DNA of 64,000 bases from a virus (IMGVR_UViG_3300037280_000066:54061-118060), one strand, 5' to 3'. Shown: positions 43,117 to 63,916, counted from the stretch's first letter. Notes: generated from the letters alone by a model not told the origin. A program made the numbers and translations.

Positions 43117-43182
43117 CTTTCCTTTCTTTTATTTTAATTTCTAAAACATACATATAAGTATATAAGAATTATATAGATGTTT

Positions 43183-43219
43183 TAAAAATTAAAGACAGGG
43201 TAAGGGCAACCCTGTCTTT
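43183..43219 (-). terminator. hairpin / intrinsic terminator between tape measure and Dit genes
   Basis: AAAGACAGGGT / ACCCTGTCTTT 11-bp stem (43191-43219), U-rich tail on the - strand. Confidence 0.65.
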
Positions 43220-43224
43220 AGAAA

Positions 43225-46200
43225 CTATCTATATATTCCACCCTTGTTAAGCAGTTTTTTAATTTCTCCTGCAATATTACCAGTTTCTTTCTTTAAGCTA
43301 TTCACAGTAGATGCATCTGCGTTTCCATCTATATTTATCTCTACATTTATATCTCCATAATTTCCTGTTGCAGGTGTGTTTGCAGATTTCACACTAAAAT
43401 TAGGAACAAACTTAGTAGCTAAATTCGTAATAAAATTTGTCATTTGATTAGAACTTAACGCATATTTTGATTGATTAAATGTATTAGTTGCATTACTAAT
43501 ATCGTTAATGTTATGATTAGAATTCATCGCATTGCTAACATCACTGGTATTATGATTATGATTAGAATTAGTTGCATTCCTAATATCACTAATATTACTA
43601 GTATTATCATTTAAATTAGTAGCATCACTAATATTGCTAGTGTTATCATTATTCATATTATTAATAGAATTTCCTCCAATATTACTATTGGAACTATTAT
43701 TGATTTTATGATTATTTTTAACATTAGTATTAGCATCACTAATATTATGATTGTTAATATTTGTATTAGTATCATTAACACTATGATTACTATTACCATT
43801 ATGATTATTAACATTACTATTAACATCATTAATACTATGATTATTAATATTTGTTTTATTAACATTCTTATCATTAACAACATTGTTAATATCATTTTTG
43901 TTATTACTAACATCATGATTATTATTAATATTATTTTGATTAGTATTGTTAACATTATGATTCACATCATTAACCTTTTGATTAGTATGATTTATATGAT
44001 TTACATCATTTTTATTACTAACATTATGGTCAACATTATTACTAATATCAGTATCAATATTATGATTATGCATGATATCATTTTTTGATTGAGTGTTATT
44101 ATTAGTCAAATCATTTTTTGTATTACTATGATTTGATATATACCCATTCGTGATATCATTTTTGTTATGATTATTAACTAAGTCATTTTTTACAGAACTA
44201 TTATTATGATTATCAACAAATTCATTTGTGGCATTGTTATGTTTAGTATTATAATCATTTTTATTGTTGTTAGTATTATTATGAGTAGTATAATCATTAT
44301 TATGAGTATTGCTATTATGGTTAGTCGCATAATCGTTATTATTAGTATTGTTATTATGATTAGTTGTATAATCATTTTTAACATTAGAAACTTGAGATTT
44401 ATCAGGAATGTTTTCTTTATGGTCTGATGCTAAATTTTTAACAAGTTTAGTCATTTGACCAGAATTCAACACATATTCAGGTTCTTGCTCAGTTCCATGT
44501 AGATTATATAAACCAGTTTTTGTAACAGCCCCATTCTCAATACCTTTAGCATAACTACCTAATGATTGTGGAGTATATTGAGCTTCTTGGTCTTCATGAA
44601 GTTTTTGAGCGTAAGTATCTGCTTCTTGATATGTCTTAAATTTACCCAAATACTTTCCTGTTTTATAATAAGTGTCTCTGGCTTCTTTATCAGTCATTAT
44701 TCTGCCATCATCTGATACAGTAGGAACTAATATTTCCATTCCACTATCTTCATCCTCAAAGCTCATAGAACGCACTGTACTGAAAGAACCATCTGAATTC
44801 TTAACAACTGGTCTACTATTTAAATCTATGTTACCTGCTCCATAGTAAGGCTGTTTAGGTGCAGGGGTTGGTGCAACTGATGGTGTTACTGTTTTTACAG
44901 TTGATGATGCTGTAGTTGTTTCCTTCACACCTGTTGTAGATGTTCTCATATAACCTTGATAATCACCAGAAGTGATATCAGGATACTTAGCTCTTAAATC
45001 TTCTGCTTCTTGGTGATATGATTTTTGCATATCTTGAATCTGTTTTTTCCAAGTTGCATCAGAATCATAATATCCTGCATCTAAGTTTTTCTGTAAATCC
45101 ATATATTGTTTCTGCAAAGTACCTACACGTTGTTTAGCATTTTCAGAATCTGAATATATAGGAACATCCTTTTGATTAGAAATCGTATTATTAACAGCCT
45201 GATTTGCACCATTAATAGCAGTTTGTGCAGGTGAAGGAGGTGCTGTTACAGCAGGAGTACCTTGAGCATTAGGAATTAAACTCCCACCACTAAGAGTGTT
45301 AATATCTATTAATGCTTTCTTAGCATTTTCAAGTTTTGCTAAGAAATCCCTATCTATCTTATCTCCTAATAACTTTAAACCATCTCCAAATGTTCTTGAA
45401 AATGTTGTATATAAAGTTTGAACTGATGTTATTTTAGTTCCAGATTCTTCTAATTTTCCAGTGAAGTTAGTTAGATTATCTCTAACTGGTTTCATAGCTT
45501 TATCAAATTCCTCTGTAGTCTTAGCTAACATAGCATTACGAGCAATAGCGGCTACATTTTCGTCAAATAACTGTTCATCAATTGTAGTCTTTTTAAGGTC
45601 AGTTTCCTTCTGTAATCCTGCTTTTTGGTCATTATAATTGTTTGTGATAAGTTCTCTATTACGTTTAGTCTTCAAATCGTCAATTTTTAAATCTTGGTCT
45701 TTCATTTGCTTTTCGAGTTCTTTACGTTTTTGATAACCTTCAAAACTACTATCTGCCATAATAGCATTAAGTTTTTGTTGAATGACTTGCTTTTCATCAG
45801 TTTGAACTTTTAAGTCTTTACCATAATCTTCTGTTGCATTCTCTCTATCAAAAGCTTTTAACTTTTCATCAACATAATCATTATAGTCTTTCAACTTTTT
45901 ATCAAGAATTTCTTTCTCTTTTGTAGCACCCTTTTTGATAATATCCTGTATTGCAGTCTCAGTATCTGTAATGTCTTGCAGTTTAGTATCATTAAGTTCT
46001 TTCATTTGAGCTTTTAATTCTTCTGATGTTCCTGCCACACTATCTTTTAGAGCATCTTGCTTATCTCTATATTCTTGTGTGCTAGTAATAGTTTTATCAG
46101 TCACAGCATTAACTTTGTTAAGTTCAGCAGTCTGTTTTGCAAGAAATGCAGTAGTTAACACAATCATATCTTGACGATTTTTTTCCTTACCTGCAAAATC

Positions 46201-49200
46201 ATTATCATCAAGTGCCTTACCTTGTAACTCTATGTTTTTCTTTTGTCTGTCGTATTTTGTCTTTTCAGCATCAGACATATAGAATAGTTCTTCAACTTGG
46301 ATTTGAACTTTAAGTTTTTGATTTAAACCAAAATCCTTTTGCTCTCCTGCTCTTGATGTTCTTAATTTTTCAGCTTGTTGGTGAAGTCTATCTTTCTCTT
46401 CAACGCTTGTAGCCTTATTCCATGCTACTCCAAGTTCATCAATTTGTCTTGTATAATCAAGAATAAGAGATTGTTGATTTTCTAATTCCATAGTAATAAT
46501 ATTGATTCTTTCTCCAAAATCAGTATCAGCTATACCTTCGTAAGCAGACTTAAGTTTTTCTAAAGAATGAATAGTATTAGCAATACCTGCTTCTTGCACC
46601 TTGAATAATTCATCAACTTCTGCTTTTTCAATATCTTTTTGTTTAGAAATTATATCCCCTTCAAGATTATCTTTTGCAATCAAATCTTTATGGAATGCAG
46701 TTCTTAACTGAATATACTTTGAAGCAAAACTTTTGAAATTATCAAGTTCAGCAATTTGAGAATCCCTTGCATCACCTGATTTCATATCATTGATTGTAGC
46801 TACTTTTTCATCAACAATTTTGTCATACTGATTACTATCATATATGCCTTTATCATCAAACTTCAATCCATATGTACTCTCAAGTTTAACTCTTTCTTTT
46901 CTTGCTAGTTCTCCTTCTTCCCAAGCTAGATTATTAACAGCTTGTTTCTTTTGCTTTAATAATTCTATTTCTTCTTGTAAGAGTTTAATACGTTGTGTGA
47001 AACTAACAACTTTCTTTTGTTCTGCAAGGTTTTTATCTATTGCATCTGTAACTTCATCAATAGCCTGTTTATAAGCGAATAAATCATCCTTTTCGTTCTT
47101 GTATTTTTCAGGATTCTTATCAGCAGGTTGAGCCTTTGTTTTAGGCTCAAAATCATCTCCTTGATATGGTCTAATATTATCAGTAAACTTACCAAGAGCA
47201 TTGATTTTATTAACTTCGTCATTGTATGTTTTTACATCATCAACAAGACCTTTTAACTCAGTTTTAGCTTTTTCATTTGCACCTTTGGCATTCTCAATAG
47301 CCCCTGTAAATCTGCTTTTGATAACATCATCAAACTTAGTTGCAACATCACTTAAACCAGGAACTTTTTTCAAAACATCAGCTAACCAACCAAAATTAGC
47401 TTCATAAGATGCGAACAATCCTTCATTACTTTGGATTATCCCTTCATTCTTTTTGATAACAGTTTCTAACTCAGTTCTGTGTCCTGCTAAGTTTGCAAGA
47501 GCAATTGCTTTAGCATCTAAAGCCTGTTTCTTTTTAGCATCAAATTCTTCTTGAGATTTTTGTTTTAAAATATCAACAATATTCCCTTGGAATTTAAATG
47601 CTCCTGATGCTTCATCAACACCAGTAATAAGTTCAGGATATTTCTCAGCAATTTTTACAGTAGTATCATAATATTCCTTAGATTGATTATCTAACTTGCT
47701 TAACTTCATGGCTGATTCAGTTATTGACTTATTTGAATCTGCTATTGTAACAAGTTCTTGATTATACTCTTCCATCATTTTTATAGCATTTTCAACATTT
47801 GCATGAAAATCTATTTTAACGTCTGTAGGTAATTTAGCAAGATTATCAACACCTAATTTAAACTCTGATAATGCATCTTTATTTTTGATTGCTGATTCTC
47901 CAATTTTATAAAGACTATCTCTAAAAGAGTTAGCACTAGCTTCTAATTTACCTGAATTTAAAGCATTTGGCATAGAAGTGAAAGTTTTTAATGCTGTTTC
48001 ATATTCTTTCTTTTTATTATCTATATCTGCTTGTTTAATTTGAGGTAAAATATTATCTAGTATTGATTTTAAATTGGCTGTACCATTAGACCCTGCAAAT
48101 TCTTCTGGACTATGTTTACCAATATCTTCTAAAATAACCTTAATAAAATCTTTAGATTGCGTACTCAAAGTCCCTGCTGTTGTCTCATATCCTTTAACTA
48201 TTTCATTAGCATTGATTTGAACAAGATTCATTACTTTAGCAATATTAGCATTCAAATTTGTTTCTGCTTCTGATGTTGCTTTTGTAACTTCTGAATTTAA
48301 CTTATCTATTTCAGCTTGGTAACTTTGTCCTGCTTTTGATATTTTATATTCCTCTGAACTATCATCAAAATATCCTTGCATTTCTTTAGCATGTTGTGTT
48401 TTTGCAGTAATAGCTCCAGAATCTGAAAATTCATTATACCATATACCATCATACTTTGGAGCATCCATAATCTTTTTATTACTAGCAATATCATCACCTA
48501 AAGATTCTAACTCTTTTCCAGATGCTTGTAATAGTATTTTTTGTTTCATGTCATATTCTTTTTGAAGTTTAGTAATTCTCTTATCTATTTCACTAGAAAC
48601 ATCCTTATAAGCATTAACTTCATCAGACATACCATTCTTCAAATCAGGGAATTGTTCAATTAATTGTTTTTGAACATCTACTAACTTATTCTTTTCATCA
48701 ACATTTAATCCAACAGAACTTTGTTTATCATTTAACTCTTTATAACTATCAGCCAATTTTTGCAGTTCATCTGCTGATTTTTTCAATGTAACCATGTCAT
48801 TTTGAGTGTCTGTAATAAACTTTTGTTGTTCTTCTCTAGCATGTACCCAATGACTAATAAGGTCAGTTACAGCACCAATTATAAATGTGATAGCAACAGC
48901 CAATCCCATTGTTAGAGCCATTTCTAAAGCAACAGCACCTGCGGCGGCGGCAAGTTCAGATATTCCTAATAAATCAAAGAATCCTATCAAACCCCAACCT
49001 CTAGCTCTTGTCATAGTAAAAGCAACACCCATTTTTTCAATACCTGCTATAATAGCAGTACCAAAACTTTTACCCATACTTAATAAGCTAATTTCTTTAT
49101 TAAATAATCTCATGACAACAACAACTGCCATAATTGCTACTGGCATAATACCAACCTTGTTAATTATGAAATCAAGAACTTTAACAACAGTTGTTAAAAC

Positions 49201-51486
49201 AGATACTAAACCTTTAATACCATCAGAAGAAATAGTTGCACTAAAAACACTTTCCATAGTTGCTTTTAAAACACCCATTTTTGCAGTAATACTATCCATT
49301 CTTTTTGCATTTTCAGTTACTGCTGAACCTTGTGAGTTTAAAGCAGTTTCTGTTGCAGATGTAGCAATATCCATATTCTCCATTAAGTTAATGAATTTAC
49401 TGTAATGGTATGTTCCTGCAACAACTTGAGCTACATTATTTTGAGTTACATTACCCCATGATGCCCAATTTGTTTTTACATCTTTAAGAATATCATCAAA
49501 TGAACGAAATTGCCCAACACTATCTCTAACAGCAACTCCAAGAGATTTTAAAGTCTTCTCAGATTTACCTGCATCCTCTTCACCTTCTGGGCCTATTCTA
49601 AACATTCTTGCCATCATACTTTTGATTGCAGTTCCTGCTTCATCCCCTGAAATACCTTGTGAAGATACAATAGCTGTAGTATAACCTTCTAATTGTTGAA
49701 CACTTACACCTGCTTGTCTAGCAGCAGCACCCACCTTACCAATAGATTGTGAAAGGTCTTCTGCACTAGTTCTATAGTTATTTTGGATTTCATTCCATTG
49801 GTCTAATAAACCTTTAGCATCATTTACACCCAATTTAAATGTTATCATTGCAGTATTTAATGCTTTAGATGCTGATTCTGCTGTTAATGATGTAACATTA
49901 GATGCCATTGCAGATACTCTACCAAGTTCCATAATATCTTCTGGATTTTTATGTACTCTGGCAATTTCTGCATAAGAACGCATAATATCTGCTGATGATT
50001 TACCTAAATCTTGTGCTGTTTGTACAGCATTTTGACGTAAATTTTCCATCTGTCCACTTGTAAAATCTGTTACTTTTCCAAGTTCTACCATAGCATCATT
50101 CATATCTACAACATATCTAATACCATCTTTTAAAGTGTTAAGTGCTTGCATCCATCCAGTTGCGGCTATCATCCAGATAGGGAATGCACTCGCGGCATTT
50201 TTTAATTGTCCCATGAATCCAAGGTCTTTATTAGATGCATTACTCTCAACAGTTTCAAATCTTCTTACTGATTGAGTAGCTTCATCAACTTGTACTCTGA
50301 ATTCTTTAACCTTAGTACCATCAAACATCTTAACAGTTGCTTGATTCATTGCACCAGACATTCCACCTAATGTCTTATTAATCATTCCCAATTCTTTTAC
50401 ATCATAATTTTGTCCTGCAAAATTTTGAGCCATGTATTGAGAAATACTTGATTTCATACTATTAGAAGAAATACCTTGATAATTAAGGCTTTCTGTTCCT
50501 GTGCTATTCATCAAGTTTCTTCTATTGATTAAAGCATCTTCTTTTTGCTGTTCAGCATATCCAAGTTTAGCTTGTGCATCTAATGAAGCAATAGCCATAT
50601 TTAATCTATTGATTTCTTTAGTTGTATCACTAGTATGAACATTAAGTTTACTCATATCTTCATCTATTTTATTTACTGCTAATTGGTCTATATGAATACT
50701 ATACTTACTATCAGCCATTATTTTTAACTTATTAGACATTTTATCAAGAGCTAATTCAAGGGCTACAACTGCCTGTTGTTCTTTTTTAAAATCTTGAGTA
50801 ACATCAGTTTTAGAAGTTGAAAATACACGCTTAATAAGTTCCCCTGCTTCGTTTAACTCTTCTTTCCATGTCATTGTTTCTTTTACTGCTTGACCTAAAT
50901 CATTTGTATAAGAAACAATTACTTTATTAAATCCCCAATCTTTATTCATTTCAGATTGGATTTTAGTTATTTTATTTTCAGCAATTTCTAATGTTTCAAG
51001 AACAGATTTTTGTATACTGGCTTGATTTGCGTTCAAAACATTAGCAGGTTTCCATTCGTCAACATGTGTTTGTGTAGTTGGCTGAGTAAAAGTTTTTGAT
51101 GCAGTTTGAGATGCTTTTGCCATAGCTTCTTGTACTGTATCTTGTACTTTTTTTGTTTGTACACTTATATCTTTTGCATCAATACTTAATTTAAGAACTA
51201 ATGCTTGAGATATTTTTTCACTCAATGCTTTTATCTGGTCATTAATATATGTAACTTTATCATCTATTTTTACTTTTAATACTAAGTCTTTTAAACCTTT
51301 TCCTGTACCTGTAACATTATCTAATTGTTCATTAAAACTTTTTTTAGTTATATCAAGCTGTACATCAAGTTTAATAGCCTTAGTGATTTTAGCTTGTATT
51401 TCTCCAACTTGTCTATCTAGGTCTGCTTTACTTGTTTGTAATTGAACCTTTAGCCCTAAACCATAGTCTTTTGCCATATAATTCAC
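43225..51486 (-). CDS. tape measure protein (TP901-type core) with C-terminal cargo domain and Asn-rich insertion
   Basis: 2753 aa, [10 protein letters not shown]...YAEIAR...WNEIQNNY...GTAIKS TP901 core, TM-like hydrophobic stretch, long coiled coil. Lies upstream of Dit. Confidence 0.92.
43470..44390 (-). repeat. Asn/His-rich low-complexity coding repeat inside the TMP
   Basis: About 300 aa of degenerate NNHN/NDxxN/SNISD units, ATT/ATC-rich on the + strand. Confidence 0.9.
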
Positions 51487-59059: not shown

Positions 59060-59863
59060 TTATGCTTGTTGTGCTAAATAACATTGTCTACAAAGAATAT
59101 CTTGACTATCATCAAGTAAACCTGCTTGAACTTTTTTCATTTCTTCTGACTCTACAATTTCTTGCCATGATTGTGTGAATAAATTACCTAAAACATGTTG
59201 TAAACCAAAGTCTGAACAACATAGTACACACATACCATTAGGTAGAAGTAAAGCCCCTCCATCAGGATAATCAAACATAAACTTATGTCCACACTTGATA
59301 TTTCCTTTTAAACTTGAAGATTTGACTTCATCCTGAACCTCAATTTTTCCTGCCCTATCATAAATCATTGCTTTTTCACTTTGATATATAAGATGTTTAA
59401 TTTCATTATGTAAATCTCCAAAATGATGATGAAATTTATATATTCCATTTATAGGATTCTTACAAACATATTCAAGTAACTCTTTATATTGTTGAGTCAT
59501 TGGTACAGTTGTTTTACCATTATTATCTGGTAAATGTACTGAGAAATAATCAAACTGAATATGTTTAATTTGATTATATGTATCAATAGTCATACCCACA
59601 AGTGTTGTACTAAATAAAATTCTATGACCTTTACTTTTAGCATACCAAACCATTTCAACCCAATCAGGATTAATACAAGGTTCTGAAAATCCTGCAAAAG
59701 ATATTGTGCTGTCAATTGGCATTTTATCAATAACTAATTTAAAATTATCTAATGATAATTGTTTTACTGATGATTGATATTGTTTTTTTATAAGATACTG
59801 TGGACAATACTTACAATTAAGAACACATGTTGCCATAGTTCCAACTTCTAAAAATGCTGACAT
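59060..59863 (-). CDS. radical SAM protein with SPASM/twitch-like C-terminus
   Basis: CVLNCKYC (CxxxCxxC), FAGFSEP, STTL, C-terminal CGH...CVLCCSDF...LGNL...CRQC. Confidence 0.88.
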   Translation of the reverse strand: MSAFLEVGTMATCVLNCKYCPQYLIKKQYQSSVKQLSLDNFKLVIDKMPIDSTISFAGFSEPCINPDWVEMVWYAKSKGHRILFSTTLVGMTIDTYNQIKHIQFDYFSVHLPDNNGKTTVPMTQQYKELLEYVCKNPINGIYKFHHHFGDLHNEIKHLIYQSEKAMIYDRAGKIEVQDEVKSSSLKGNIKCGHKFMFDYPDGGALLLPNGMCVLCCSDFGLQHVLGNLFTQSWQEIVESEEMKKVQAGLLDDSQDILCRQCYLAQQA

Positions 59864-59874
59864 TCAATTTCCTC

Positions 59875-60516
59875 CTATACGTTATTTAATGTGCGATACA
59901 TGAAGTCTTGGCTCTTAGTAATTTTAATATCTCCCTGTCTTAATTCTGGTGATATTACTATTAAAGCCAATCCTCCCATCGTCATATTTTGACTTATTAA
60001 ATCTCCTGCACAAAAATCTGTGTCTATGAAGTGTACATGAGGACAGATATTCCAATCAAAATCACATATTGCTTTTCTTGAAGGAGTATACCAAGAATCA
60101 TGTATAAGTATAATCATATCTTTTTTAGGTTTTAATTTTGATATACTTTGAATGTCTGTGTAAACACCATTATACTCATGGTCTGCATCTATAATAACAA
60201 GACCAATTTCTTCACTACCATTGTTAATATTTTCTACAAGGATAGGTACAGTAAGTGCTGAATTACCTAATATAAATTCCACATTAGTGAATTGTTCAAT
60301 ATTAACAATGCAAGAATGAGTTACATCACAAGAGTAAACTTTTTTGAAGTGTTGAGATAAAGACCTCAATGAACCTCCACAAAAAGAACCTATTTCAATT
60401 GCACTGTTTTTTTTATCAATCTTACTTAAGACTTGTTGTAAAATTGTTCTTTCAGCAGGTGACATTTGCCACAATACTGAACCATCATATATCTTTTCTA
60501 CATCTTTAATATTCAT
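59875..60516 (-). CDS. class I SAM-dependent methyltransferase (Methyltransf_24-like)
   Basis: IEIGSFCGGS, GNS, IIDADHEY..V..DI, LIHDS. Confidence 0.85.
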   Translation of the reverse strand: MNIKDVEKIYDGSVLWQMSPAERTILQQVLSKIDKKNSAIEIGSFCGGSLRSLSQHFKKVYSCDVTHSCIVNIEQFTNVEFILGNSALTVPILVENINNGSEEIGLVIIDADHEYNGVYTDIQSISKLKPKKDMIILIHDSWYTPSRKAICDFDWNICPHVHFIDTDFCAGDLISQNMTMGGLALIVISPELRQGDIKITKSQDFMYRTLNNV

Positions 60517-61922
60517 TATTCTTTCTCCTTTCTACCAAGCCAAGACCCTGCAAAATGATGTATTGTGTAGGTGCTAGGTGTAGGAGTTGCTACAAGTTTT
60601 GAATGGTCATAAGGACAAAATACTTCTGTTGGATAGATTACCACAGATTCTCTTAAGAATGTAAATCCATCACCTTGACCAACAATCCAAGGAAATGATA
60701 ACCTTGTTATTGTATGAGTATTAGGTATTGGATTAGCTTCTAGTTTTGCTGTGTCATAATAAGCTAACAACATCTTAATCCATGGGTGACCAATCTCTGC
60801 TCCCATAGTAGCAGTAATCAAGAATTTATCTGCTTCATGCCCTGTAAACGCTCTATGATTTAGGAATTCATCTAAGTTTTTAACAACTTCAACATCTGAA
60901 TCCATATAAATACCACCATAGGTATACAAAGCCCATAAACGCACAAAGTCTGTTACGAATGCCCATTTCTTTTTATCATAAGCTTCCTTAACATATGCAC
61001 AACAATTGATATCAAAATTAGTTTCATTCCATTCTATTATTTCGTAGTCTGGTAAATACTTAGTCCAACTGTCAAGGCATTTTTGAATCTTAGCAGGTTT
61101 CTCTGCTCCACCAAACCAACAGTAGTGAATAGTTTTAGGTATATGTTGCATCATTAATGATTTCTTTAAATCATAAATTGTTTGCCATCTATTCCATATT
61201 TCATAGAATGGAACTTGTTTAGTATTCCAAGGTTTAGCACCTGCGTAGTGCATAATCTTAATATTCTCAACTTTGATTTCTAAAGATGTTGATAATGATG
61301 TGTTGTATTTATAGTGCATTTTCTTAATTTTTTCATTACATGTTATGTTAAAAATGTCTTGGTCATGGCAGTCATAGAATTTTGTGTTTGCCATGTTAAT
61401 CCATGTGTCACATAAGTTTAACTTTCTGATTGCATCTAAGTTAATTAAGGTTACCCCTGCATTAATATAGTAAGCATCTTCTGGTATACCTAAATTAGTT
61501 TTGTAACCTTGTGGTAATCCAGTATCTTCTACTCCTGCAAGTAAGTATCCTTCCATCTCTGTATTATAGAAGTGAGATATATCACTAGCAACTATAGCAT
61601 CTGCATCAATATATAAAACCCTATCATCATTAATGATGTTTGGTAGAAATAAACGATATAGAGTGTATTTACTAAATCTAGTATCTACGTTAATGCCACT
61701 AGGCATATATTCTTCATACATTTTTAAAAGATTGATATACTCATAAGTATAATCTTCTCCACACATTGCACAGACAGTATCAAATTCATCTAAATGACTT
61801 TGTTCTAGGTTGTCTGATAACAAATAAACTTTCGTTGGCACTTTATTTTTAACAAATAAAGCATACATTTCTACTGCTACATAAGTTGACCAATTGGCAC
61901 TAAATGCTATAGCTACATTCAT
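60516..61922 (-). CDS. glycosyltransferase fusion: N-terminal GT8 + C-terminal GT32 (DxD)
   Basis: GT8: YRLFLP, LYIDAD, YINAGV, HDQD, HYAGAKPW. GT32: IPKTIHYCWFGG, WAFVTDFVRL, GGIYMDSDV, HHFAGSW. Confidence 0.9.
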   Translation of the reverse strand: MNVAIAFSANWSTYVAVEMYALFVKNKVPTKVYLLSDNLEQSHLDEFDTVCAMCGEDYTYEYINLLKMYEEYMPSGINVDTRFSKYTLYRLFLPNIINDDRVLYIDADAIVASDISHFYNTEMEGYLLAGVEDTGLPQGYKTNLGIPEDAYYINAGVTLINLDAIRKLNLCDTWINMANTKFYDCHDQDIFNITCNEKIKKMHYKYNTSLSTSLEIKVENIKIMHYAGAKPWNTKQVPFYEIWNRWQTIYDLKKSLMMQHIPKTIHYCWFGGAEKPAKIQKCLDSWTKYLPDYEIIEWNETNFDINCCAYVKEAYDKKKWAFVTDFVRLWALYTYGGIYMDSDVEVVKNLDEFLNHRAFTGHEADKFLITATMGAEIGHPWIKMLLAYYDTAKLEANPIPNTHTITRLSFPWIVGQGDGFTFLRESVVIYPTEVFCPYDHSKLVATPTPSTYTIHHFAGSWLGRKEKE

Positions 61923-61955
61923 AATATTCTACCCCTTCTAATTTTCAATTTTCGA

Positions 61956-62627
61956 CTATTTTTTTACCCATACAAAGTAATCTTCTATTACATTTGCATC
62001 ATGTATACTACTATAAAATGCTTGTGTTACAATTTCATATTCAGAGAATGGTGATACTAAGAATTCAACTTGTTCATATGTAAAACACATACATGTAGCA
62101 TGGTTAATATATCCACCAATTCTATTTTCAAATTTTGGAAAATGGATACAGGCTAGACCTGTTGATTTTAATGCTTCTTTAATTTTATTCAAAATTAAAA
62201 ACTGGTCTTCTTCATTATTATGTTGTAATACTTGTAAACAATATATGAAGTCTACAGTTTCAGACCCTTGATATTCATCTCCTATTTGGTATATTGCATT
62301 TGTAATTCCTGAATTGATTAATCTTTCTTCTGCTTTTTTTAATACAGCAGGAGTAATGTCTAAGCAAGTCATATGCTTACATTCTTTAGCTGTATATTGG
62401 GCAACTCTTCCATCACCACAACCATATTCTAAAATAGAGTCAATTTTTTTATTACCAGTTCTGAATTTGTATTCTTTAATCAAACTTTCAGCATTAACTC
62501 TTCCAGTTTCATTATATAGCTCTTCTGTTTCAGTTGGTGAAAAATAGTCTCTGCTATTGCTTTTTAAGTTATTATCCTGTAAATCCCTATAAAGATTATG
62601 TGTTACACTTGAAACATACTTTTCCAT
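61956..62627 (-). CDS. class I SAM-dependent methyltransferase
   Basis: LEYGCGDGR, CLDIT, DFIYCLQVLQH. Confidence 0.85.
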   Translation of the reverse strand: MEKYVSSVTHNLYRDLQDNNLKSNSRDYFSPTETEELYNETGRVNAESLIKEYKFRTGNKKIDSILEYGCGDGRVAQYTAKECKHMTCLDITPAVLKKAEERLINSGITNAIYQIGDEYQGSETVDFIYCLQVLQHNNEEDQFLILNKIKEALKSTGLACIHFPKFENRIGGYINHATCMCFTYEQVEFLVSPFSEYEIVTQAFYSSIHDANVIEDYFVWVKK

Positions 62628-62736: not shown

Positions 62737-62768
62737 AAAAAAAACCCCCTTATCCTTTTTTAAGGGGG
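62737..62768 (-). terminator. intrinsic terminator (conditional, overlaps an alternative hairpin)
   Basis: On the - strand: CCCCCUUA-loop-UAAGGGGG followed by U8. Confidence 0.8.
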
Positions 62769-62804
62769 CTTGAGAAATTAATCCCAAACCCCCTTATCTG
62801 TTTG

Positions 62805-63177
62805 TATTGCAACCATATAGCCAAGAGGAATACCTTGAGATAATTGAATTACCCCTCATAACCTGCTTCTTGGATTTCATCGAGTCTTGCTATCCTAATT
62901 TCTAAATCCTGAAACTTCCTCGAAAGGAAGTGTAAAAAGAAATTTGTGTTCTGAAACCTGAATCCTGATGTTTGAACTTTGAACTTTCATATTGTGTCCC
63001 TTATGGACTTCTTTTAATCACTATTATATAGTGAACATATGTATTATCTGTTAAGATAATATTCTTGTTCTTCTAAAAAATAAGAATATCAAATTCTGAT
63101 TTTATTAAATCACCAGTTATATTTTTACCCAAAATATTAAGGGAATTCAAATTCAAGGTTTTCATATGATTGCAATA
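62805..63177 (-). ncRNA. putative structured non-coding RNA (~373 nt) directly after the 213-aa gene
   Basis: No ORF in the track. 14-bp end-to-end stem containing a G-U pair that works only on the - strand. Several internal hairpins including a UUCG tetraloop, and a 7-nt periodic array. Confidence 0.7.
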
Positions 63178-63187
63178 TCTTTATTAA

Positions 63188-63829
63188 TTATCCTTCAATT
63201 GTGATTCTTGTTATTACATTGCTTTCACTTAAAACGAAGTCTACCTCAGAGTTGAACTGTTCAATGCTATCTTTCAATGCCTTGATTTTCTCCCCTAATT
63301 TTAGAACATCTAACACTTCATGCTGATTCTGTTCTAAATATGGTTTGCTAATAGCTTCAACTTCATCTGCTGTTGCTTTTTGCTTTCCTTCTTTTCCAAG
63401 TGTTGTAAGTAATAATTCATCAAGCTTGATTTGTACTGCATCATTTGCTCTTTGAACAGCTACTAATGCTGATTGGTATTGTCTTTCCATATGTGAAAGA
63501 AGTAATATTTCATAAGAAATAGATTCTTTTCTTTCAATGGCTTCTGCTACTGTCATTTCTTTACCTGCAATTGTTACTTTTGAGTTTGCATTGCTTGCTA
63601 CTATTGCTGACTTGATTCTCTTTCTTCTTTCAGTCAAATCAACTACGCTTTGGTAACTTGCTTCTGCTTTTGCTGAATACTCAGCAGGTGTGTCAATGTT
63701 GTTAACTTTCTTTGCACTTTTCTTATATGAAACTATAAGACTTGCATCAGAGATTGCTCTTTCAATCCTACTATGTAGAAGTTTTAACTCTGCTAATGCT
63801 CTTTGAATTGACATTTCTGAATTTGCCAT
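63188..63829 (-). CDS. conserved-type hypothetical helical protein (213 aa), candidate partner of the downstream RNA
   Basis: RBS AAGGAG, own promoter. Internal repeat MSIQRALAELK / MTVAEAIERK, SYQSVVDL..RRKRIKSAIVASNA. Confidence 0.85.
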   Translation of the reverse strand: MANSEMSIQRALAELKLLHSRIERAISDASLIVSYKKSAKKVNNIDTPAEYSAKAEASYQSVVDLTERRKRIKSAIVASNANSKVTIAGKEMTVAEAIERKESISYEILLLSHMERQYQSALVAVQRANDAVQIKLDELLLTTLGKEGKQKATADEVEAISKPYLEQNQHEVLDVLKLGEKIKALKDSIEQFNSEVDFVLSESNVITRITIEG

Positions 63830-63887: not shown

Positions 63888-63916
63888 ATCATACCACACT
63901 CTGAACAATTTGTCAA
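63888..63916 (-). promoter_or_regulatory. sigmaA promoter driving the 213-aa gene + RNA
   Basis: On the - strand: TTGACA (63916-63911), 17-nt spacer, TG-N-TATGAT (63893-63888). Confidence 0.85.

Follow-up and report, generated by a model that had tools for sequence, protein, structure and literature searches.

In the hut mRNA of Bacillus subtilis the oligomeric reader HutP recognises UAG triplets that lie four bases apart in two blocks with a linker between them, and the attenuator of the trp leader is read in cis by TRAP, an 11-mer beta-sandwich ring that takes up one triplet of the (G/U)AG repeats per subunit. Here we analysed a phage locus for which a preliminary description had proposed a 7-nt periodic array inside a putative RNA, to be bound repeatedly by an oligomer of the adjacent protein with a logic like that of TRAP or Hfq. 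The likeness to HutP and hut lies in the period of 7, in the two blocks with a linker and, in one clade of relatives (L007), in the use of UAG/GUAG-type units. However, hut contains 3 + 3 sites in a 5' leader, where HutP controls a terminator and requires histidine, whereas here about 11-13 mostly A-A-R sites are contained in what appears to be a closed, stable RNA lying 3' of the gene, and the companion protein does not have the HutP fold. In the case of TRAP, the 11 repeats of the trp leader can be set beside 7 + 4 units here, but TRAP reads 9-11 repeats with spacers of 2-3 nt and a period of 5-6, whereas the spacers here are of 4 nt and the period is 7. HutP (PF09021) had no match in the 182 kb phage record, with the B. 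subtilis control matching, and no TrpBP (PF02081) gene was found in the phage genome. Membership in the HutP or the TRAP system fails on each defining feature tested, and the suggested kinship with TRAP or Hfq is not supported, since the phage lacks genes for TRAP and HutP and its protein is modelled as a helical bundle.

The locus shares with the CsrB/RsmZ RNAs of the CsrA system its many short purine motifs, and the window units AGGAUUC, AGGUUUC, AGGAUUU and AGGAUAG contain GGA; in contrast to those RNAs, GGA is not a family trait here (the relatives have AAAG or AAAU), the sites are without conserved hairpins, their spacing is strict and the candidate partner is phage-encoded. The likeness to the type III toxin-antitoxin pair ToxI-ToxN consists of a repeat RNA beside the gene of its presumed partner and of the setting of phage-host conflict. 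ToxI repeats, however, are about 36 nt long (34-45 in the class), precede the toxin gene and are cut into units, whereas the units here are of 7 nt and the RNA follows the gene and would be a single closed molecule; assignment to this class also fails on the companion, for which no toxin-family match was found. ROOL, GOLLD and the phage K RNAs lnc001 and lnc002 are large, abundant and structured RNAs of phages and prophages that lie beside tRNA genes (PMC9241854, PMC12286853), but they have neither a heptamer strip nor an obligatory protein gene, and they show no likeness in sequence or structure to the RNA here, which gave no Rfam match even at E of 10 or less. We rejected lnc001 and lnc002 as members of the same family, our 3'-domain model giving no match at the phage K loci, and likewise a likeness of AAAAUCC...GGCUG to helix P4 of RNase P, since the topology is local and not long-range and the RNase P models are unmatched.

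The locus and its transcription signals

The stretch of DNA analysed (the window, 64 kb) comprises bases 54061-118060 of a 182 kb IMG/VR phage record that is about 92% complete. The array lies on the - strand in a 560-nt gap between the gene for a 213-aa protein (63829..63188) and a methyltransferase gene (62627..61956), and the RNA delimited below is present as a single copy in this phage genome. The features are given in the direction of transcription:

63888..63916, - strand: sigma-70-type promoter, TTGACA, 17 nt, TG-TATGAT, with 11 of 12 consensus positions and an extended -10
63188..63829, - strand: gene for the 213-aa helical protein, a homologue of T5.085 / phrog_1491
62807..63175, - strand: whole structured RNA, ~369 nt, bounded by both strands of the closing helix P0
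63164..63175, - strand: 5' strand of P0, UUGCAAUCAUAU, pairing with 62818..62807
63163..63158, - strand: conserved junction GAAAAC after the 5' strand of P0
63128..63143, - strand: small conserved hairpin CCC...GGG of the 5' domain (aligned columns 151-153 with 165-167)
62939..62987, - strand: array block A, seven heptamers A-R-R-N-N-U/A-C
62915..62930, - strand: lineage-specific hairpin CUUCCU-UUCG-AGGAAG, a perfect 6-bp stem with a UUCG loop, inserted in the U-rich linker between the blocks
62882..62910, - strand: array block B, four units AGGAUUU AGAAAUU AGGAUAG (C)AAGACUC, placed by alignment with relatives
62821..62881, - strand: conserved 3' domain, containing GAUGAAAUCC and made of P1 and P2
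62873..62868, - strand: 5' strand of P1, CCAAGA
62858..62836, - strand: internal hairpin P2
62826..62821, - strand: 3' strand of P1, UCUUGG, followed by CU
62807..62818, - strand: 3' strand of P0, AUAUGGUUGCAA, the 3' end of the RNA
62737..62771, - strand: intrinsic terminator with an 11-bp stem, an 8-nt loop and U8, 35 nt after the RNA

No promoter-like site was found between the 213-aa gene and the RNA, and the promoter at 63888..63916 seems likely to start a transcript carrying both. Many relatives have a tRNA gene where the window has its terminator. On the - strand at 62737-62797 we also observed a three-part arrangement G5 / C5 / G5+U8, absent from the relatives, in which CCCCCUUA pairs with an upstream UAAGGGGG (19-nt loop, then A6) or with a downstream UAAGGGGG, the latter pairing being the terminator; the arrangement may work as a two-state terminator or as a bidirectional one. 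The RNA is followed directly, on the - strand (59060-62627), by a run of sugar- or modification-type genes comprising a SAM methyltransferase, a fused GT8 + DXD glycosyltransferase (468 aa), a second methyltransferase and a radical-SAM/SPASM protein, and in the nearest relative (L232) glycosyltransferases lie on both sides of the gene-RNA module. A giant ORF of 2753 aa (43225-51486, - strand) is found within a block of co-oriented large ORFs (630-1276 aa). The phage also carries a cluster of 26 tRNA genes on the same strand as the RNA and 17 kb from it (133789-139160; ARAGORN, complement), and at the start of the same genome record (202-921) three tRNA-like ARAGORN calls have two-base 'anticodons' (ga, tg and ta), which may represent odd or broken tRNAs.

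The structured RNA and its helices

Comparison of the relatives indicates that the strip sits in a discrete, structured, non-coding RNA defined by helices with compensatory changes, and these helices bear out the putative RNA that had been proposed around the array. Its 5' boundary is found 13 nt past the stop codon of the 213-aa protein gene. The two ends of the RNA are joined by the closing helix P0 (12-14 bp), whose partners are the segment 13 nt after the protein stop and the segment directly after GGCUG. The full-length alignment of 16 close relatives yielded a P0 of 14 pairs, most of them compensatory and many of them G-U, and family-wide the 5' and 3' ends of the same locus paired with a median of -23.2 kcal/mol as compared with -14.6 for mismatched loci (p = 6e-22). 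The helix P1 (6 bp) is kept in every one of the 31 aligned copies of the 3' motif, with five of its six pairs co-varying. Examination of 63 distinct sequences showed 92.7% of P1 cells to be paired and 98 cells to be double changes, against 32.5 ± 3.8 in shuffles, and when the 3' partner was slid by 1-3 columns as a control only 24-45% of cells paired. The motif common to the gaps of the phages T5, D-1873 and Deep Blue reads AAAUCC-NNNN ... CCU-N'N'N'N'-GGCUG. The presence of G-U pairs together with the fixed strand argues for an RNA rather than a DNA element. The loop of P2 (window 62836-62858) is conserved within clades; the Gram-positive clade has UGAUUYAAUUG, which includes the short palindromes AAUU/CAAUUG, and the T5-like clade has CAUAAGAUAU. 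This conservation hints at a tertiary or loop-loop contact.

None of the 4227 models of Rfam 15 (including ROOL, GOLLD, tmRNA, RNase P, 6S, CsrB/Rsm and leaders) matched anywhere in the window, and at E up to 10 the window and the T5 RNA regions gave only chance-level matches, far below gathering scores. ARAGORN identified no tRNA or tmRNA gene in the window, and a DNA similarity search of the gap region against deposited phages returned no match; the RNA was found only via the protein because its sequence is too diverged for blastn. The openly searchable literature yielded neither a description of the RNA nor expression data for it. We propose a T5.085-associated heptamer RNA family having as its features P0, the 7-nt A-R-R array, the element AAAUCC-P1...P1'-GGCUG and placement immediately 3' of a gene of the T5.085 family, all four of which are present in the window. 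The comparative evidence points to a widespread, previously undescribed structured phage RNA.

The heptamer strip within the window and across the family

On the - strand the array reads AAAGTTC AAAGTTC AAACATC AGGATTC AGGTTTC AGAACAC AAATTTC, seven contiguous heptamers (62987..62939), exactly as had been described. In 16 relatives these units of block A line up in every column, and an A is invariant at each seventh position. We found (ARRNNNC)x7 a single time in the 64 kb window, plus one shifted copy of itself with 2 mismatches, and in none of 100 dinucleotide-preserving shuffles. Tandem Repeats Finder reported only the first 2.4 units, as an exact repeat, and hence the array is a degenerate periodic sequence rather than a simple repeat. 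The uniqueness of the pattern, its absence from shuffles and the divergence of the units in register agree with the earlier view of a strict register with a degenerate sequence that does not look like slippage; a register kept while the units diverge is the opposite of slippage, which makes recent slippage unlikely. The heptamers might instead have their role at the DNA level, serving as iterons to which a replication or packaging protein binds, or be left over from slippage without any function, and this explanation could draw on short direct repeats being typical of iterons and on the exact repetition of the first 2.4 units. However, the G-U pairs of the helices would be A-C mismatches on the other strand and the helices covary as RNA, the element always lies on the strand of the upstream gene, and the units diverge yet stay in register, so that we give this explanation a negligible probability and regard it as effectively excluded.

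After the UUCG hairpin the in-phase units AAGTTTC AGGATTT AGAAATT AGGATAG are found (62917..62890, - strand). The claim that the register resumes there holds for the lineage of the window, but AAGUUUC, counted there as the first unit, shares bases with the 3' arm of the hairpin, and in relatives without the inserted hairpin the 9-nt linker puts the two blocks 2 nt out of phase; in-phase resumption is limited to the window's lineage. The layout of the window clade is of seven units, a U-rich linker of ~9 nt and four units, then UCGAUAAAAUCC into P1, and its unit consensus is A-A-R-K-N-U-Y. The nearest relative, with 74% protein identity, keeps the number of units and their register and lets the inner bases drift, and its linker hairpin UUAUCU-UUUG-AGAUAA is a compensatory version of the CUUCCU/AGGAAG of the window. 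Two relatives from Gram-negative phages (L078 and L085) present a hairpin of 40-45 nt with a CUUCGG loop between heptamers 3 and 4 (alignment A6 columns 330-375), which parallels the UUCG linker hairpin of the window; the strip seems able to accommodate the insertion of stable tetraloop hairpins.

Family-wide, an adenine recurs every 7 nt, usually in Y-A-A/G-R, over about 11-13 units, a figure that is approximate and at most 'about 11-13' beyond the aligned clades, automatic counting being noisy. Spacings of exactly 7 nt made up 30% of the 876 spacings between A-R-R starts in 62 loci, against 6.5% in shuffles, and spacings of 6-8 nt made up 50%, against 20%. In 31 homologous loci the composition power at period 7-7.5 reached mean z values of 5.0 and 3.6, with no power at period 3 (mean z -0.4). 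The conservation of 7-nt periodicity downstream of protein homologs, which had been put forward as a check on the array, was confirmed by this spacing excess and by the z of 5.0. The Gram-negative clade that includes T5 (12 aligned relatives) has the same invariant A columns. The periodic triplet varies by clade with the period constant, being AAAG in most, UCA-A/G in L041 and L062, and of the UAG/GUAG type rather than the AAAG type in the L007-L009 clade (33% protein identity; GAGUAGG GAGUAGU UAGUAUU ... UAGUAGU), where the units lie 270-330 nt after the protein stop and the three identical loci amount to one distinct sequence. Taken across the alignments, the central strip is under selection for the 7-nt spacing and the adenine-purine motif. 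A separate scan of viral contigs for four AAAG units at 7-nt spacing returned mostly unrelated loci among the matches listed and was left unused.

The array could also be thought to encode a small peptide, a leader coupled to the terminator, running from an ATG at 62990 to a TAG at 62897..62895 (31 aa, with AAGGGA ahead). The ATG and a weak Shine-Dalgarno-like sequence stand directly before the first unit, and downstream there is a terminator, plus an alternative hairpin sharing the C5 run of that terminator. In the 31 homologous loci, however, ORFs over the array share neither a frame nor a start codon nor a length (4-77 aa), in several loci a stop comes right after the start, and 3-nt periodicity is absent. 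Furthermore, more than 120 nt, including the conserved P1 and P0 helices, separate the stop from the terminator, and many relatives have a tRNA gene instead of a terminator. A peptide is hence very improbable and, like the action of the heptamers as DNA, effectively excluded.

We found no conserved fold-back helix inside the array, where the best 7-column register reached 77% canonical pairs against 93-100% for P0 and P1, and such a proportion is ordinary A/U complementarity. Partition-function folding did not single out the array (mean unpaired probability of 0.42 against 0.40). These results bear on a purely architectural role, in which the strip would be a flexible or weakly self-pairing A/U spacer, or its periodic adenines would take part in tertiary or intermolecular contacts like those of assemblies made of RNA only, such as ROOL and GOLLD, with no protein reading the repeats. 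The A/U-rich units can indeed pair mutually in many registers (about 70% canonical pairs), the predicted unpaired probability is not raised, the loop of P2 has short palindromes such as AAUU, and large phage RNAs beside tRNA genes self-assemble (PMC12286853). Nevertheless, a spacer would not hold an invariant A per 7 nt or a fixed number of units (16 + 12 relatives), no single pairing register is conserved, and the obligatory protein gene would be left unexplained, and we consider an RNA acting by its architecture rather improbable.

The companion protein and a model for the strip

The 3' domain of the RNA was found after the gene in 83 of the 93 sources with the protein gene, as counted with a covariance model of the 3' domain only that was built from the 31-copy alignment, and always on the strand of the gene and 230-500 nt past its stop. 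The reverse scan of the viral collection with a 17-base motif of the 3' domain gave 21 matches, comprising 17 true RNAs and four chance matches with neither an array nor a P1 partner. The gene was directly upstream and on the same strand in all 14 RNA-anchored copies with enough upstream sequence, the remaining three of the 17 being truncated pieces, two of them from contigs already carrying the gene. The linkage between gene and RNA is strict in both directions, the question of an RNA without its gene resting on this small RNA-anchored sample and the locus counts not being independent, since many loci are near-duplicates. Such linkage could equally reflect a role in cis, with the RNA as the 3' UTR of the gene. 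One contig of 349 kb (IMGVR_UViG_3300024999_000029; L016 and L017) contains two copies of the module, 157 kb apart and with slightly different sequences, and may have arisen in assembly, where two related phages were merged as a chimera or concatenated.

Searches with the 213-aa protein (tblastn) matched at least 743 deposited phage genomes, and the module of gene and RNA also occurs in many phages and prophages from metagenomes. The deposited genomes included T5 (T5.085), T5-like phages of Salmonella, Escherichia and Vibrio, phages of Pseudomonas and Klebsiella, Erwinia jumbo phages, Lactococcus phage AM1, Bacillus phage Deep Blue and Clostridium phage D-1873; the protein is also present, annotated as 'hypothetical protein', in prophage-bearing genomes of Lysinibacillus, Paenibacillus and others. 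After the gene, the genomes of T5, D-1873 and Deep Blue have 360-1230 nt without annotation, and these gaps contain 7-nt arrays of the AAAG type. The T5 copy of the RNA lies at about 43494..43151 of NC_005859, complement (locus L011 3144-3487), between T5.085 and the promoter of T5.084, and has a closing helix of 14 bp, about 11 AAAG-type units and the P1 motif. In 53 protein-anchored loci (about two thirds) tRNA genes, all of them co-oriented, are located no more than 2.5 kb away. At least eleven loci have a tRNA whose start lies only a few bases from where the RNA model ends, and this implies RNase P as the enzyme that generates the 3' end of the RNA at those loci.

The label 'tail fiber protein' of the 213-aa protein comes only from phrog_1491; T5.085 is annotated in the same way, its gene lies among tRNA genes in T5, and we regard the label of T5.085 as without support. 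Pfam contains no family for the protein, and searches of PDB sequences, Pfam, the ESM Atlas and 5.8 billion proteins returned nothing beyond 'hypothetical protein'. The AlphaFold2 model (pLDDT 91) shows long helical hairpins with a small sheet of four strands as their cap. Its sole structural match above the helical background is 3KDQ, a Corynebacterium protein without assigned function (Foldseek E = 9e-3; VIA Z 11.3, rmsd 7.5, 151 residues aligned, next row 7.5), the other matches being generic helical hairpins. The family is mildly acidic (median pI 5.9) and keeps basic residues at positions 10, 16, 21, 24, 68, 69, 73 and 101, of which R10, K16, R21, R24, R68 and K101 are outside the predicted dimer interface. 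Prediction with two copies gave a symmetric homodimer with an ipSAE of 0.60 against 0.00 for the best of 3 controls, a value that was attained by 20 of 30 solved homodimers and by 1 of 23 single chains; at least 95% of contacts agreed between runs, with a partner pLDDT of at least 87. This prediction supports homodimerisation and informs on the pairing of the protein, not on RNA binding. In a knock-down screen of T5 the gene T5.085 was 'Not Fit', meaning dispensable on the laboratory host (PMC11879866 supplement), which fits an accessory role. The anti-retron protein Rad of the T5 family, from the same tRNA-rich region, was considered and is a different protein (189 aa, TOPRIM).

Taking these results together, we give an even chance to the view that the strip offers regularly spaced sites on which multiple copies of the helical protein encoded beside it assemble, the two forming a stable RNA-protein particle. 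The heptamer run would be the central, non-helical strip of a stable non-coding RNA of ~370 nt, co-transcribed with the preceding T5.085-family gene, and each heptamer unit would be one putative binding site. Copies of the protein, probably as dimers, would line up along the strip, which the flanking helices would keep as a defined loop. The particle would be made early, from a host-type promoter, as part of the phage tRNA operon, with RNase P probably releasing the 3' end of the RNA at loci that have a tRNA next to it, and it may have an accessory role, possibly in counter-defence or in the takeover of tRNAs or translation. We infer protein binding from the two-way linkage, from the conservation of spacing and unit number over that of sequence, from the clade-specific triplets and from the lack of a conserved helix in the strip; the predicted homodimer also favours it. 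Against it stand the mild acidity of the protein, which has no recognisable RNA-binding domain, and folding energies that do not mark the array as unpaired. The repeated binding of the strip by an oligomer of the adjacent protein, as first suggested, is plausible. The other suggestion, a periodic template, found no backing, as no reverse transcriptase is detectable in the 182 kb genome; RVT_1 had no match in the phage record, with positive controls, and assignment to retrons or DRTs fails.

In an alternative view the ligand is not the phage protein but a host molecule common to all hosts. The strip would then be a sponge or docking array; candidate ligands are an RNase of the E/Y type, which cleaves 3' of purines in single strands rich in A/U, the 30S subunit or its ribosomal protein S1, the anticodon loops of tRNAs and a cold-shock protein. 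The phage protein would be a chaperone or unrelated cargo on the same transcript. The consensus A-A-R-K-N-U-Y is kept in phages of Proteobacteria and Firmicutes, the module is found in tRNA operons, and the protein is acidic and without a known RNA-binding fold, all of which would suit a host ligand. However, some clades switch the triplet yet keep the period, which a universal ligand would not tolerate, and the two-way linkage between gene and RNA is strict. We know of no host factor with a 7-nt footprint and the strip motif in both phyla. Clade-specific triplets with a constant period fit a co-evolving phage partner better than a universal host molecule, and we consider the latter unlikely.

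A more particular idea, to which the sequence lends a slim probability, is that the strip could be a rack of codon-like sites for the anticodon loops of tRNAs. The family consensus U-Y-A-A-R-K could pair, one of the pairs being G-U, with positions 38-33 in the anticodon loop of the universal tRNA-Lys(UUU), and the sole unconserved position of the heptamer would face position 32. The AGA/AGG units of the window would suit tRNA-Arg(UCU), and the phage carries both tRNA-Lys(UUU) and tRNA-Arg(UCU). The clades with UCA- or GUAG-type units, however, speak against it. Bacterial defence systems aim anticodon nucleases at tRNA-Lys. If the rack were real, the particle of RNA and protein, produced from the very operon that encodes the tRNAs, could hold or shield about 11 tRNAs and would possibly be a decoy for anticodon nucleases aimed at tRNA-Lys, that is, a new type of counter-defence.

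The phage T5 has been under study for seventy years, and the 350 nt after T5.085 are unannotated in its genome. The regions of phage tRNA operons carry counter-defence functions, and what is found here is a large structured RNA outside Rfam, with strong covariation and tied to tRNA operons. The pair of gene and RNA points to a previously unstudied RNA-protein module of phages, and the strict 7-nt strip offers a direct experimental handle on stoichiometry as a function of unit number. Should the protein prove to polymerise along the strip, it would represent a mode of RNA recognition new to helical-bundle proteins, and the complex would found a new class of ribonucleoproteins in phages; at minimum, hundreds of phage genomes can be re-annotated.
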